Source: an uncultured Bacillota bacterium
GTDB taxonomy: Bacteria; Sysuimicrobiota; Sysuimicrobiia; Sysuimicrobiales; Segetimicrobiaceae
NCBI GenBank assembly: GCA_963804645.1
Contig: CAWDRG010000009.1
Coordinates: 1,248,001 to 1,312,000 of the forward strand
Direction: 5' to 3'
Length of the DNA: 64,000 nucleotides
Part shown: positions 2,583 through 6,996 of the stretch, one piece after another
Layout of the letters: every line of letters starts with the position of its first letter
Numbering within the stretch: position 1 is the stretch's first letter
Position numbers and translations under genes: made by a program
Notes under the pieces: generated by a model
What the model saw: the letters and a program-made list of their open reading frames with translations, nothing else
Database searches by the model: none
Told to the model about the DNA's origin: nothing

Positions 2583-4517
2583 ATGGGCAACGGAAATTTT
2601 CGGCCGGGCACGTGGAGTAAGCTCCCGTCCAATTGTTCCCGTGATTACAACCTCACGTTTACACGCTGCGCGCAGTGGGGCAGCTACGCCTTCAACCAGT
2701 GCCTGTCGTGGATCGTCAACGCGACGGTGTCGTGCGTGCAATGGGCGTGGCAAGCGGTACAGACATGCGTGGCATGGGTTACCAATGCGACGCAACAGTG
2801 CGTCTCGTGGGCCCAGCAGGCCTCGCAGAACTGTTGTACCTGGTGGCCGTGCTCCTGGGGCTGCGCCATCGTCACGACCATCATCAGCTGGGTCTGCCTG
2901 CTGGTGCAGATCGTCGTCACGGTGGTCTGCGTCGTGTTCGCGATCATCGTCACCGTGTTCTGCGCCCTGTTCGCCGTCATCGTGACCGTCGCGTGCGCCA
3001 TATGGGCCGTGCTTGTCTACGTGTTCTGCGTGTTCTGGAGCGTGATCTCCATCATCTTCTGCATCTCCAACGCCAACGGCGGAACCGCGTTCCTGCTCAC
3101 CGACGGAACCGTGATGATGCAGGAGTGCTACGAATATGCGTACGGCGTAGGCATCCAGACCCGCAGATGGTGGAAGCTCTCACCCGACCAAAATGGCAGT
3201 TACGTCAACGGATCCTGGAGCCGTCTTGCGGATTCCACCCAGGCGCGGAAGTACTTCGCCTCCGCCGTGCTCGCCGACGGCAGGGTCCTGGTCTGCGGCG
3301 GTGAGTACTCTGACGCCGGAAGCGATACGAACACCTGCGAAATTTACGACCCCGTAGCCAACTCATGGACGGTGGTGAACACTCCCACGACCGGCGGGAA
3401 CCAGCCCCAGACATGGGGAAACATCGGCGACTCACCGAACACGGTACTGCCCGACGGCACATTCCTGCTGGGCTCGCTGAACTCCGCGAATATCGCCAAG
3501 CTCGCCCCGGCGACCCTCGCCTGGACAGCGATGAGCCAACGTCCGGTAGTGAGCAGCAGCGCTGAAGAATCCTGGGTGCTGATGCCCGATAACACCATCG
3601 CCACCCCAAGCTGTTCCGATGCCCCCACAACCTGGGTCTACGACATCGCCAGCGACCAGTGGAATCAGGGCAACAATCTGCCGACCAGCATCGTCCTTCC
3701 GCCCAGCGGAGACGTTCCTGAGACTGGACCGGCCCTGCTCCGCTACGACGGCACGGCCTTCTTCCTCGGCGCCAACCAGCACACCGCCGCGTACTCGGCC
3801 GCTGCCAACCCGCAGTGGACCAACGGGCCCGATCTGCCCCCGCTGTCCGGCTCGAACATCGGCATCATGGATGGCCCCGCCGCGCTGCTGACCAACGGGA
3901 ACATCCTCTTCGGCGCAGGTCCCATCGATGCCGCGGGGGACTTCCTGAGTCCCAGCTCCTACTTCGAATTCGACGGCACGCAATTCAACCGCACGAGCGA
4001 TCCGTCGAACAACAACTGCCCGACGTACGTGACCCGGCTGCTCCTGCTTCCGGACGGGAGCGTGATGTTCTCGCGCGAGGATGACTCATCGTTCTACGCG
4101 TATCAGCCCGCCTCCCCAACGCCGCAGGACAGTTGGCGGCCCGTCATCCAGAGCTGTCCTGCGAATCTCGTTCCTGGCAGTACGGTGCAAATCTCCGGGC
4201 TGCAGTTCAACGGGCTCTCGCAGGCCGTCGCGTACGGCGACGACTCCTCGGCCGCCACCAACTACCCGCTGGTCCGCGTCACCAACACCGGCAACAATCA
4301 GGTGCGTTACTGCCGCACCTTCAATCACACCACCACCGACGGCGGGGGCAACACCATTCCGTCCATGGGAGTGGCCACCGGCGCCGAGGTCATCACCACC
4401 AATGTCGCGATCCCATCGGATCTGAGTTCCGGCTCGTACGCGGTCGAGATCGTCGCCAACGGGATCGCGTCCCAACCCTTCAACGTGACGGTCGGCACCC
4501 GTCGCTCCGATGGCTGA
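2583..4517 (+). CDS. Kelch-repeat beta-propeller protein with N-terminal Cys-ladder insertion and C-terminal Ig-like domain
   Basis: Repeated LxDGxVLxxGG...YDP...W blades; C-terminal NYPLVR...IVANGIAS; 16-Cys segment at aa 18-160. Confidence 0.8.
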   Translation: MGNGNFRPGTWSKLPSNCSRDYNLTFTRCAQWGSYAFNQCLSWIVNATVSCVQWAWQAVQTCVAWVTNATQQCVSWAQQASQNCCTWWPCSWGCAIVTTIISWVCLLVQIVVTVVCVVFAIIVTVFCALFAVIVTVACAIWAVLVYVFCVFWSVISIIFCISNANGGTAFLLTDGTVMMQECYEYAYGVGIQTRRWWKLSPDQNGSYVNGSWSRLADSTQARKYFASAVLADGRVLVCGGEYSDAGSDTNTCEIYDPVANSWTVVNTPTTGGNQPQTWGNIGDSPNTVLPDGTFLLGSLNSANIAKLAPATLAWTAMSQRPVVSSSAEESWVLMPDNTIATPSCSDAPTTWVYDIASDQWNQGNNLPTSIVLPPSGDVPETGPALLRYDGTAFFLGANQHTAAYSAAANPQWTNGPDLPPLSGSNIGIMDGPAALLTNGNILFGAGPIDAAGDFLSPSSYFEFDGTQFNRTSDPSNNNCPTYVTRLLLLPDGSVMFSREDDSSFYAYQPASPTPQDSWRPVIQSCPANLVPGSTVQISGLQFNGLSQAVAYGDDSSAATNYPLVRVTNTGNNQVRYCRTFNHTTTDGGGNTIPSMGVATGAEVITTNVAIPSDLSSGSYAVEIVANGIASQPFNVTVGTRRSDG

Positions 4518-4569
4518 ACAGGGCACGGCCGCCAGCTGAACGACCACGACGCACCCGGAGGACACGAAG

Positions 4570-4893
4570 ATGAACCTGCGCGCCCGATTCAATCCCGGGA
4601 AGCGAACGCCGGCCGGCCCCGGCCCGGTGGATGACTGCGGGTGCGCCACGGGCGCCCAATTCATGGGTGTGGCGTTTGCCGGTTCCACAGCGTGGTATCT
4701 CTCGCGATGGCACGCGTATTCCGTTGGGGGAATCTGCGGGCGCGTCCTGCTCGTCTCCTTCGCCGCCGCCGTCCTGGGAAAAATCGTCGGCATCGTTCGG
4801 TACCGTTCGAAACACTCCCGGTCCTCACCGCCGTCACGCCGCCGTCAAGCCGTAGACAAGCACGCACTCGCGAATCTCGGAGAGCGTGGTTAG
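4570..4893 (+). CDS. Small membrane protein (two hydrophobic segments, DCGC motif)
   Basis: GGAGG RBS upstream; two TM-like stretches; follows the Kelch gene. Confidence 0.55.
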   Translation: MNLRARFNPGKRTPAGPGPVDDCGCATGAQFMGVAFAGSTAWYLSRWHAYSVGGICGRVLLVSFAAAVLGKIVGIVRYRSKHSRSSPPSRRRQAVDKHALANLGERG

Positions 4894-5044: not shown

Positions 5045-5185
5045 GCCTTCGGGGCAGGGTGAGCCGGGCACGCGCTCGGCAATTCCCGATCGGCGGTACA
5101 GCCCGCGAGCCGGGCCGCGGTGGACGCGGCCGGGCAGGATCTGGTGAGAGTCCAGAGCCGACGGTATAGTCCGGATGGAGAAGGC
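5045..5185 (+). promoter_or_regulatory. FMN riboswitch (RFN element)
   Basis: TTCGGGGCAGGGTGA...AATTCCCGATCGGCGGT...AGCCCGCGA...GATCTGGTGAGAGTCCAGAGCCGACGGTATAGTCCGGATGGAGAAG; P1 GCCTTC/GAAGGC; directly upstream of ribD. Confidence 0.95.
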
Positions 5186-5203
5186 GCCAGCGTGTCGAGC
5201 CAT

Positions 5204-5241
5204 GCCCCGAGGGCGCAGTTTGCCTCGGGGGTTTTTGTTTT
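5204..5241 (+). terminator. Riboswitch expression-platform terminator
   Basis: CCCCGAGG...CCTCGGGG stem followed by GTTTTTGTTTT, just before the ribD ATG. Confidence 0.85.
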
Positions 5242-5242
5242 G

Positions 5243-6370
5243 ATGGCACCGATCCATACAGATGACGAGCGATTCATGCGCGAGGCGCTCGACCTCGCCC
5301 GGCGGGGGGCTGGGACGACCAGTCCCAATCCGATGGTGGGTGCCGTCGTCGTGGCGGACGAGGCGATCGTCGGGCGCGGATACCATCCCCGACCGGGCGA
5401 ACCGCACGCAGAGGTGTTCGCGCTCCGCGACGCCGGCGCCCGCGCGCTCGGCGCGACGCTGTACGTGACCTTGGAGCCGTGCGCCCACTGGGGGCGCACC
5501 CCGCCGTGTACCGAAGCGATCATCGGGGCGGGCATCCGGCGGGTCGTGGCGGCGATGCTCGATCCCGACCAGCAGGTCAGCGGTCGGGGCCTGCACCGGT
5601 TGGCCGAAGCCGGGGTGGCGACGAGCGTCGGCGTGGCCGAGCGCGACGCCCTGGACCTGAACGAGGCGTACGTCAAGCACCGGACCCTCGGCCTGCCGTG
5701 GGTGACCGCGAAGTGGGCGATGACGCTGGACGGGCGGATCGCGACCCGCTCGGGGGATTCCCGGTGGATCTCCGGGGAGCCGTCCCGCGCGCTGGCCCAC
5801 GAACTGCGCGCCGTGTCCGATGCGATTCTCGTGGGCATCGGCACGGTGCTGCAGGACGATCCGGCGCTGACCGCGCGCGGCACCGCGGGCGCCCGCAGCC
5901 CGCGGCGCGTCATCCTCGACAGCACCCTGCGCGTGCCGCCCGGCGCGCGCGTGCTCGCGCGGGACGGGACGCCGGTGCTGGTCGCCACGACGGAGCGGGC
6001 CGACCCCGAGGCCCGGCGCGCGCTCGAAGCGGCCGGCGTCGAGGTCCTGGCCGCGGGCGGCGCCGACGGGCGGGTGGACCTCCGGGCGCTGCTCGCCCAT
6101 CTCGCGCGCGCGGGCGTGATGAGCCTGCTCGTAGAGGGCGGGAGCGCCGTGCTCGGCGGGTTCGCGGACGCCGGGCTGATCGACACGGTCGTCGCGTTCG
6201 TCGGCCCCGCGATCGTCGGGGGGCCGGCGCCCGCGCCGGTCGGCGGCCGCGGGGTGGAGCTCTTGGCCCACGCGTGGCGCCTGGGGCGCATCGCCGTCCG
6301 GCAGCTCGGCGACGACGCCGTCATCGAGGGGCGCGTCCTCCGGCCTGACAGATCCGGGGGAGGCGCCTAG
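5243..6370 (+). CDS. ribD: Riboflavin biosynthesis deaminase/reductase RibD
   Basis: PNPMVGAV, HAE, TLEPCAHWGRTPPC, LLVEGG. Confidence 0.97.
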   Translation: MAPIHTDDERFMREALDLARRGAGTTSPNPMVGAVVVADEAIVGRGYHPRPGEPHAEVFALRDAGARALGATLYVTLEPCAHWGRTPPCTEAIIGAGIRRVVAAMLDPDQQVSGRGLHRLAEAGVATSVGVAERDALDLNEAYVKHRTLGLPWVTAKWAMTLDGRIATRSGDSRWISGEPSRALAHELRAVSDAILVGIGTVLQDDPALTARGTAGARSPRRVILDSTLRVPPGARVLARDGTPVLVATTERADPEARRALEAAGVEVLAAGGADGRVDLRALLAHLARAGVMSLLVEGGSAVLGGFADAGLIDTVVAFVGPAIVGGPAPAPVGGRGVELLAHAWRLGRIAVRQLGDDAVIEGRVLRPDRSGGGA

Positions 6371-6372
6371 CG

Positions 6373-6996
6373 ATGTTCACCGGGATCGTCGAGACGACCG
6401 GCGTCGTCCGCGCGCTCGCCGCGGGCGACGGCGGCGCGCGCATCGTGGTGGAGGCGGGCGCGTTTCTCGACGGCGCCCGCGTCGGGGACAGCATTGCCGT
6501 CAACGGTGTGTGCGTCACCATCACGCGCACCGGGGGGCCGCTGTTTGAGGCCGACCTCGGCGCGGAGACGCTGCGGCGCACCACGCTGGGGCAGCTCCGG
6601 CCCGGCGCGCCGGTGAATCTCGAGCGCCCGCTCGCGGTTGGCGACCGCCTCGGCGGGCACGTGGTGCAGGGCCACGTAGACGGCGTCGCCCGCGTGGTCG
6701 AGCGGCGGCCGGACGGGCCGGGATGGTGGGTGGAGATCACGCTCCCGCCCGCGCTGACCCGGTACGTGGTGGAGAAAGGCTCGATCGCGGTGGACGGGGT
6801 GAGCCTGACGGTCGCGTCGATCGCGCCCGAGCGGTTCGGCGTCTCGCTGATCCCGCATACGTGTGCGGCGACGACGCTCGGGACGCTCCGCGAGGGGGCG
6901 TTCGTCAACCTCGAGGTCGACGTGCTGGCGAAGCACATCGAGCGGCTCGCGGCGCCGTATCTCGGGGCCGCTCGCCCGGAGGAGGATGGGAAATGA
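6373..6996 (+). CDS. ribE: Riboflavin synthase
   Basis: MFTGIVE start; GDSIAVNGVC, GGHVVQGHVD. Confidence 0.97.
   Translation: MFTGIVETTGVVRALAAGDGGARIVVEAGAFLDGARVGDSIAVNGVCVTITRTGGPLFEADLGAETLRRTTLGQLRPGAPVNLERPLAVGDRLGGHVVQGHVDGVARVVERRPDGPGWWVEITLPPALTRYVVEKGSIAVDGVSLTVASIAPERFGVSLIPHTCAATTLGTLREGAFVNLEVDVLAKHIERLAAPYLGAARPEEDGK

Follow-up and report, generated by a model that had tools for sequence, protein, structure and literature searches.

Cysteine-laddered helical hairpins in bacterial enzyme-type proteins and a linked CGC membrane protein: a possible membrane-association system

Introduction

What is the purpose of a run of cysteines, set at exact 11-residue steps and mirrored about a central turn, that is inserted into a β-propeller? 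The question is raised by a gene in a 64,000-nt stretch of contig CAWDRG010000009.1 (assembly GCA_963804645.1, an uncultured bacterium of the Segetimicrobiaceae), referred to here, at its full length, as the window. The gene encodes a Kelch-propeller protein, and its ladder of cysteines had been pointed out in an original prediction made from the sequence alone. An antiparallel hairpin in hendecad register, whose mirror cysteines are coupled, is well supported by the sequence comparisons and structure models described below. The same module heads a family of metalloprotease-like proteins, and a conserved membrane protein with a Cys-Gly-Cys (CGC) motif is encoded beside it; the α-helical hendecad nature of the hairpin, the protease family and the membrane partner all go beyond the original prediction. 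The function is a prediction: the rung-stapled amphipathic hairpin is proposed, with modest confidence, to be a membrane-association rod that works without a signal peptide and has the CGC protein as its dedicated partner.

The ladder and its hairpin

The gene and the parts of its product are the following.

2583..4517, + strand: ladder-propeller gene including the stop codon, 644 aa (open reading frame (ORF) list and translation)
2607..2624, + strand: GTWSKL, aa 9-14, first propeller β-strand, N-terminal of the insertion (AlphaFold2 strand aa 10-14; G9 and W11 invariant in alignment A1; same motif in ladderless relatives)
2634..2834, + strand: arm 1, aa 18-84, amphipathic helix with a C-x-x-W repeat and a Cys every 11 residues, seven in all (Cys positions; model helix 22-82)
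2832..2864, + strand: turn CCTWWPCSWGC, aa 84-94, with four Cys at 84, 85, 90 and 94 (sequence; relatives of both families)
2862..3062, + strand: arm 2, aa 94-160, helix apolar throughout, its seven Cys at 11-residue intervals mirroring those of arm 1 (model helix 90-159)
2909..2989, + strand: 33-bp tandem repeat within arm 2, 2.5 copies, 83% matches, the unit being one 11-residue rung (Tandem Repeats Finder)
3078..4514, + strand: body, aa 166-644, Kelch β-propeller and C-terminal Ig-like domain, galactose oxidase/GlxA-like fold (Pfam, Foldseek)

The ladder cysteines stand at residues 18, 29, 40, 51, 62, 73, 84, 85, 90, 94, 105, 116, 127, 138, 149 and 160 (codons 18-160 are nt 2634-3062). Their spacings are six times 11, then 1, 5 and 4, then again six times 11, and the mirror pairs each sum to 178, which is exactly the 11-step mirror pattern first described. 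Arm 1 (aa 18-84) contains three charged residues and has a mean Kyte-Doolittle hydropathy of -0.02, and arm 2 (aa 95-160, 66 aa) has a mean of 2.66, with no charged residue and no Pro or Gly. The return arm had been characterized as hydrophobic V/I/F; it is indeed apolar throughout, but not purely V/I/F, since T, S, Q and Y are also present. The absence of a classical signal peptide, also claimed, agrees with a reading of the N-terminus by eye, in which no hydrophobic, signal-peptide-like stretch was found.

The AlphaFold2 model of the window protein was computed with a 75-row alignment and has a mean predicted local distance difference test score (pLDDT) of 89.9 and a predicted template modelling score (pTM) of 0.84. 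It consists of a strand at aa 10-14, helices at aa 22-82 and 90-159 (pLDDT 84-94 for the block, 87-94 for the second helix) connected by a turn of seven residues, and an all-β body. Together with the insertion point given by the ladderless relatives (see below), these helices bear out the long antiparallel hairpin that had been expected to project from the propeller.

The hendecads of arm 1, compared over 105 proteins, carry on one side C at position 1, V/A at 2, W at 4, A/G at 5, T/A at 8 and a mixture of V/T/S/F/Y at 9; these six positions are apolar, and polar residues (Q/S/R/E) occupy 3, 7, 10 and 11 on the other side. Those of arm 2, also over 105 proteins, are apolar at all positions, and positions 5 and 9, which flank the cysteine face, hold small residues (A/T/S/G). 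The large apolar side chains of this arm cover about 260 degrees of the helix surface along 44-77 residues, and its middle positions are poorly conserved, except for being apolar. Judged from these sequences, the hendecad pattern is that of a straight, tightly packed antiparallel helix pair. A β-solenoid or amyloid structure was considered and rejected, because the model is helical at high confidence and the 11-residue pattern gathers C, W and A on one helix face. An oligomer prediction with three copies of aa 12-170 and the alignment scored 0.01 against a mark of 0.42, and says nothing on self-association either way; a search of the ESM Atlas with the hairpin returned no usable match. The needle, pore former or fibre first suggested for the hairpin finds no direct support in these results.

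Covariation of the two arms in ladder-propeller relatives

The ladder-propeller proteins are called family 1 here, with P denoting listed relatives and L genome loci, two sets that partly overlap. A search with aa 1-175 retrieved 109 clusters of the same layout, with 5+5, 6+6, 7+7 or 8+8 rungs at 11-residue spacings around a CCx4Cx3C or Cx7C turn. The turn CCxWWPCSWxC recurs in family-1 relatives and in the metalloprotease family, and the 5+5-rung subfamily has the simpler C-x7-C turn. Arm spans were also measured independently of the cysteines, as the distances that separate the turn from the GxW anchor on one side and the GGTAFLLTDG anchor on the other, in 131 proteins, 25 others being skipped (truncated, anchor missing or odd turn). 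The spans (arm 1, arm 2) are (53,50), (64,61), (75,72) and (86,83), with r=0.9997 (n=131), and their difference is 3 in 126 of the 131 proteins. All 45 genome loci whose ORF is complete, from many phyla, have as many cysteines on one arm as on the other. Most losses of a rung are joint: the outermost mirror pair is replaced by G/A in P0043 and by T/G, G/A and G/A in P0053/55/56. From these comparisons the ladder pattern is far beyond chance. The 33-bp repeat in arm 2 shows that rungs arise by duplication of a unit, so that keeping the arms equal needs selection.

The mirror cysteines had been predicted to be coupled pairs, and this is substantiated by the equal arms of all full-length relatives and by the joint losses of outermost and inner-turn pairs. 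A homologue search had been suggested, to see whether both arms expand in register and the module is fused to other domains; the relatives range from 5+5 to 8+8 rungs, and the module also heads a second type of body (see below). Homologues with asymmetric cysteines, or a model with separate transmembrane (TM) helices, were looked for as evidence to the contrary and did not emerge; the few asymmetric relatives are without the N-terminal GxW motif and appear to be 5'-truncated. A search for short stand-alone ladders yielded nothing but fragmentary or frameshifted copies of this architecture, longer fused forms not having been searched for. One ladder-propeller protein, P0050, has an added chitobiase C-terminal domain.

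A divergent subfamily (P0110 and P0155, aa 1-165) has an acidic arm 1 (CSQWADEGSYQ-like) and an aromatic arm 2 (CQAWYWVANWV-like), so that the return arm need not be aliphatic.

A second family of ladder proteins: adamalysin-like metalloproteases

The module is also found at the head of a different enzyme-type body. This second family (family 2) was first met as G009, from the window's own phylum, and cluster P0109, in which the ladder begins at residue 4, contains the turn CCDWWPCSWAC, and is followed by two further apolar helices and a C-terminal HExxHxxxLWH domain. With at least 390 clusters in a dedicated search, against 109, it is larger than the ladder-propeller family. Carriers among the matches listed include cultured Anaeromyxobacter, Hyphomonas and Rhizobium, all annotated as 'hypothetical'; an example from a cultured strain is A2cp1_1910 of Anaeromyxobacter dehalogenans 2CP-1 (name as given in the source listing). 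The best 120 clusters were listed and 119 of them scored for cysteine spacing, which is palindromic in 113 of the 119, in the following forms.

(11,11,7,1,5,4,7,11,11): 52 proteins
(11,11,11,1,5,4,11,11,11): 42 proteins
(11,11,11,7,1,5,4,7,11,11,11): 10 proteins
(11,11,1,5,4,11,11): 4 proteins
(11,11,7,10,7,11,11): 2 proteins, with the inner turn pair lost jointly
(11,7,1,5,4,7,11): 1 protein
four-rung form: 1 protein
(11,11,11,1,5,4,11,11,11) after one extra N-terminal Cys: 1 protein

The other six are apparently truncated or have one extra downstream Cys. The mirrored 7/7 step gives strong independent support for antiparallel pairing. Moreover, the family-2 profile matches the window ladder at E 6e-6, so the ladders of the two families are homologous and the module is portable. 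Arm 2 is Trp/Tyr-rich in family 2, as it is in P0155-type variants.

The AlphaFold2 model of a family-2 protein (pLDDT 89.3) has helices at 2-31, 39-108 and 113-141, and then an α/β domain for which Foldseek returns adamalysin-type metalloproteinases (best 1wni, E 9.5e-4, TM-score 0.63 on the target). This body combines the HExxH zinc motif with the catalytic fold, residues H317, E318, H321 and H327 being invariant, and has four invariant Cys, none of them a zinc ligand. A Pfam search of family-2 proteins gave no match at all; PF13688 is precomputed on 4 of the 120 listed.

Two module pairs stand in tandem in one locus (L100:3194-6886). The first comprises a CGC partner (3194-3643) and a family-2 ladder-metzincin (3712-4815). 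The second comprises a third hairpin-metzincin type (5121-6506), with spacings 18,5,4,2,1,5,18 and the motif HELGHxxGLCH, and a partner-like protein of two helices whose only Cys is in 'YGCE' (6362-6886); Pfam matches neither member of this second pair.

The propeller body and the insertion point

In the window protein Pfam recognizes only Kelch_1 (aa 224-268, E 1.4e-8), and the first 200 residues are without a match. By Foldseek, the body is a seven-bladed Kelch propeller with a C-terminal Ig-like domain; the best match is 9g43_A (galactose oxidase), E 2.1e-17, with 4unm_A (GlxA) and 1gof among the top matches, at about 14% identity. The body had been called a lectin-like propeller, of which the propeller stands; its resemblance is to the galactose oxidase/GlxA fold. 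As the curated NCBIfam model of GlxA (NF052501) is far from reached, with 20.3 bits against a cut-off of 800, the body is not called a copper oxidase. Only two His occur in the 644 aa, at 400 and 582, of which H582, in the C-terminal domain, does not vary among 75 relatives; the copper site of radical copper oxidases has two Tyr, two His and a Cys-Tyr cross-link.

A scan of 1.84 billion representatives yielded 1652 body relatives at E<1e-30, and most of the best 150 of them match only aa ~165-640. The ladderless relatives read M-x-GTWxxLxNQPxFxAGTMLLLTDG without interruption, which means that aa ~16-165 replace a loop of about nine residues after the first propeller strand. The insertion had been placed at this point from the outset, and the model strand at aa 10-14 agrees with it. 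Among the N-termini of 149 body relatives, 52 are signal-peptide-like and 36 start directly at the propeller. Two cysteines of the body, C238 and C252, are kept in 19/20 and 18/20 ladder proteins, whereas signal-peptide relatives have them in 4/50 and 3/50 cases, and relatives in at most 6/36. Fusion partners of the body relatives include multicopper oxidase, FG-GAP, laminin-G and chitobiase C-terminal domains. One of these relatives, P0156, which has neither ladder nor signal peptide, is fused to Cu-oxidase_2 and Cu-oxidase_3, an arrangement that hints at redox chemistry for the propeller family.

The CGC membrane partner

When the ORFs around the ladder gene in 46 ladder-propeller loci were clustered, a small gene emerged that accompanies the ladder, which in the window is:

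4570..4893, + strand: partner gene, 107 aa, with a basic N-tail, CGC (nt 4636-4644), a pair of hydrophobic helices (GK in helix 2) and a basic C-tail (ORF)

It begins 53 nt past the ladder stop, leaving a 52-nt spacer, and is the only partner gene of this genome. The partner adjoins the ladder in 43 of the 46 loci (41 by motif scan, plus L008 and L048 by BLAST) and in none of 27 ladderless propeller loci (L051-L077). It lies 60-400 bp from the ladder gene and can be downstream on the same strand, convergent or upstream. At L024:5400-6400 an insertion sequence (rve integrase core, E 7e-17) cuts the ladder, of which only arm 2 is left, and the downstream CGC partner is retained; at L036, where the ladder gene is frameshifted, there is no partner. 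The linkage extends to family 2, with a same-strand partner in at least 53 of 80 metagenome loci, many of them on short contigs. In the case of G009, whose gene is at a contig end, no partner was found upstream, the other side being beyond the contig.

Over 101 partner sequences the consensus reads CGC and G-A, followed by two apolar helices that a short loop connects, the second of them containing GK..G. The CGC motif is eight residues before the first of the two apolar stretches. Over 103 sequences the net charge averages +0.65 in the stretch of 20 aa ahead of CGC, +0.07 in the loop and +3.09 behind helix 2, and from these charge counts the positive-inside rule predicts that both ends and the CGC motif are at the cytoplasmic face. 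Family-2-linked partners are longer (median 143 aa), and have a Cys in the last four residues in 25 of 57 cases, against 0 of 44 family-1-linked ones. The partner matches no Pfam, NCBIfam or PADLOC family. A sequence search of the PDB with it gave nothing meaningful (best E 0.01, an unrelated dehydrogenase), and the ESM Atlas returned only unnamed 'hypothetical protein' clusters.

Relation to known systems

The closest analogue appears to be the CHCH twin-CX9C/CX10C fold with its oxidase Mia40. Proteins of this fold, including COA6 and Cox6B, likewise have an antiparallel helical pair with mirror-register cysteines and CX10C on one helix; the crystal structure of COA6 is a CX9C-CX10C helical pair with mirror disulfides C58-C90 and C68-C79, and C58/C90 in the reduced state has been proposed to bind Cu(I) (PMC6743065). 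The modelled window hairpin shares the helix-turn-helix arrangement. However, CHCH proteins have one CX9C or CX10C per helix and four cysteines in total, whereas each window arm has seven cysteines in six CX10C steps, with two additional turn cysteines. CHCH proteins thus have two rungs and helices of about 15 aa, against 3 to 8 rungs plus a turn pair and helices of 60-70 aa in the ladder module. They are also soluble eukaryotic proteins of the intermembrane space, while the ladder is bacterial, has an apolar second helix and is inserted in, or fused to, large enzymes. The window protein does not match the Pfam CHCH families at E up to 1.

A CGC shuttle is present in Erv2. Mia40 is reported to oxidise twin-Cys helical substrates through a CPC motif (PMC4019985), and in Mia40 and other CxC thiol catalysts a Cys-x-Cys acts on Cys-bearing helical hairpins (PMC4019985; bioRxiv 10.64898/2026.01.27.701630). 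In the ladder loci a CGC protein is genetically tied to the hairpin. The partner differs from Mia40 in being a two-helix membrane protein of 100-145 aa with no sequence or known fold relation to it and with the CGC motif predicted to be cytoplasmic.

The apparent resemblance of the partner to MerE/MerF is one of layout: MerE has two TM helices, with the vicinal pair Cys28/Cys30, at or in the first helix, required for Hg(II) and methylmercury uptake (PMC5715351). In the partner, by contrast, CGC is just before the first helix and not in its middle, and there is no Mer family match and no mer operon context in the window.

Two other likenesses concern parts of the protein. The body shares with galactose oxidase/GlxA the Kelch propeller and Ig-like domain at the low identity given above. 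As for the hairpin, α-hairpinins are short secreted peptides with CX3C motifs. These plant antimicrobial peptides are also reported to be helix-loop-helix structures with two disulfide staples (PMC6273665), but the ladder's hendecad repeat, apolar arm and partner gene are all absent from them.

The earlier statement that the hairpin belongs to no described family was upheld: neither it nor the partner matches a Pfam, NCBIfam or PADLOC family. The turn motif and the locus tags A2cp1_1909-1911 gave no match in the open-access literature (subscription journals were outside the search), in which CX10C or cysteine ladders led only to CHCH, defensin and unrelated papers. Both the hairpin and the partner therefore appear to be previously undescribed. 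The ladder may be a new variation on a known structural principle, and the two-gene system has a real chance of being a novel kind of membrane-targeting or thiol-relay device.

A model for the ladder and its partner

The model proposes that aa 16-165 form an antiparallel α-helical hairpin about 90-105 angstrom long, built on the 11-residue (hendecad, 11/3) repeat, which places every Cys on one helix face. Cys i of the outgoing helix would be opposite Cys 178-i of the return helix, giving seven cross-rungs, with C85-C90 as an inner turn pair. The amphipathic outgoing helix would pack its C/W/A face onto the return helix, the remainder of which would stay apolar, and the outcome would be a rigid two-sided rod, not possible as a soluble monomer. 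Its apolar arm would lie in lipid, probably along the plane of the membrane and not across it, and the rod would hold at the membrane whichever enzyme-type domain it carries: a galactose-oxidase-like propeller in this case, an adamalysin-like metalloprotease in the sister family. The CGC membrane protein, as a dedicated partner, would probably dock the apolar arm and oxidise, isomerise or load the thiols of the ladder.

Disulfides are rated as more likely rungs than thiolate-metal sites, given the CHCH precedent (COA6), the extra turn pair, the conserved C238/C252 of the propeller body and the four invariant Cys of the protease body. The conserved body cysteines, and the fact that both body folds are extracellular enzyme types, can also be taken as evidence for an oxidising milieu. 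Regarding the placement in the membrane, the apolar stretch of arm 2 (44-77 residues) is too long and too variable for a TM span, its middle positions are conserved only in polarity, and Trp and Tyr abound in it in other subfamilies, so an in-plane, half-buried rod fits best, with the adjacent membrane protein as its docking and thiol-handling partner.

Several points weigh against this model. A signal peptide is found in neither family, and 36 of 149 propeller relatives also lack one, so the body is not necessarily extracytoplasmic. The CGC motif is predicted to be cytoplasmic, where stable disulfides are unexpected, which favours thiolate chemistry or an unknown export step. Three of the 46 ladder loci (L020, L022 and L035) are without a partner, two of them being short or ending at the gene, and unpaired single Cys losses occur in P0044 and in the fragment P0094. 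Finally, we know of no proven bacterial precedent for an in-plane membrane rod of this length.

It could be further speculated that the ladder and the CGC protein are a bacterial two-gene system that places folded, Cys-rich enzymes at or across the membrane without a signal peptide, as a counterpart of the mitochondrial Mia40/CHCH folding trap. The CxC protein would close the ladder like a zip, one rung after another, and in this way insertion or export of the rod and its cargo would be driven or locked; this elaboration is doubtful.

The predicted cytoplasmic CGC motif and the missing signal peptide would be better accommodated if the rungs held thiophilic metals. They could be two-coordinate thiolate sites, for instance for Cu(I) or Hg(II), at the cytoplasmic face of the membrane, which a MerE/MerF-like CGC carrier loads and unloads, the ladder being a relay, a buffer or a metal/redox switch of the attached domain. 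The partner does have the size and, apparently, the layout of MerE, with its two TM helices and a Cys-x-Cys (PMC5715351), the extra C-terminal Cys of many family-2-linked partners could be a swinging ligand, and a Cu(I) site is proposed for the reduced C58/C90 pair of COA6 (PMC6743065). But a spacing of 11 residues between rungs (about 16 angstrom by helix geometry) would store metal poorly next to clustered Cys, genes for metal handling (mer, cop or others) are not seen beside the window gene, whose neighbours encode an M19 dipeptidase and RibD, and the partner has no Pfam or NCBIfam match to Mer families. Since the attachment of a propeller or a metzincin is also left unexplained, a metal ladder is possible, though unlikely.

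The occurrence of one N-terminal module on different enzyme bodies, its patchy, transfer-like spread (see below), the tandem pairs of L100 and the small membrane protein encoded next to the ladder would all suit a released effector, in which a membrane-inserting hairpin delivers an enzymatic payload and the membrane protein gives immunity to the producer. No secretion signal or secretion-system genes were seen, though, and neither ladder proteins nor partners match PADLOC; the orientation of the partner is variable, unlike that of typical immunity genes, and its invariant CGC points to thiol chemistry and not to simple blocking, which makes an effector improbable.

It is equally improbable that the apolar arms are buried in a bundle or sheet, either as an oligomeric stalk bearing the propellers or as a two-sided rod that coats a hydrophobic surface or inclusion like hydrophobins or oleosins. 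Changes of arm length by whole rungs are stalk-like, and a wholly apolar arm 2 far exceeds the thickness of a bilayer, but poor conservation in the middle of this arm, save for apolarity, fits lipid contact better than a specific protein core, and the membrane partner would have no role. Least probable by far is an ordinary multi-pass anchor with two or three conventional TM helices and incidental Cys, as hydropathy alone would suggest, because the 66 apolar residues are unbroken by Pro, Gly or charge and form one continuous helix in AlphaFold2, the apolar length (44 to 77 aa) always equals that of the polar arm, the N-terminal strand has to rejoin the propeller, and the Cys are conserved and lost mostly as mirror pairs.

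If the rungs are real cross-links, the membrane-association rod would have up to eight of them plus a cap over about 100 angstrom, with one face entirely apolar, and would be, to our knowledge, by far the longest natural Cys-stapled helical hairpin. Such a hairpin could serve protein design as a natural rigid amphipathic rod. Together with the linked, unannotated thiol-motif membrane protein, it points to an undescribed way of anchoring, exporting or redox/metal gating bacterial enzymes, and it opens a first way into several hundred clusters annotated as 'hypothetical protein', some with genes from cultured strains.

Distribution, neighbourhood and expression

The module is widespread in soil and peat bacteria of many phyla, with its 109 propeller-family and at least 390 protease-family clusters. 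The window's own phylum has 94 genomes in all, in one order; the ladder gene, present in one copy in its genome, was found in 0 of 6 other genomes of the genus and in 0 of 22 of the family, genus included. Its nearest relatives are in metagenome-assembled genomes (MAGs) of Terriglobales type, with 75-84% identity over aa 1-175. MAG labels of ladder-propeller carriers are mostly Acidobacteriota, and also Gemmatimonadaceae, Methylomirabilota, Binataceae, Burkholderiaceae, Steroidobacteraceae, Actinomycetes, Anaeromyxobacter, Chitinophagales, Bacteroidota, Verrucomicrobiota and Caulobacteraceae. This patchy spread suggests horizontal transfer, and the window gene may itself have been acquired in this way, although its G+C content at third codon positions (GC3), 0.83, matches the neighbouring genes and the host.

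The ladder gene and its partner are flanked in the window by genes for an M19 membrane dipeptidase (1164-2231, - strand) and a RibD deaminase and reductase (5120-6370, + strand). The two genes seem to be an island of their own, the flanking genes having no evident link to them.

In peat metatranscriptomes, three runs of one study have one exact contig each, at 4097-4291, 4259-4432 and 4429-4612, the last of which spans the ladder stop, the 52-nt spacer and the start of the partner. As these contigs are assembled and the libraries may contain DNA, they are at most a weak hint of expression and of co-transcription of ladder and partner. Near-identical DNA is also found in peat metagenome runs.

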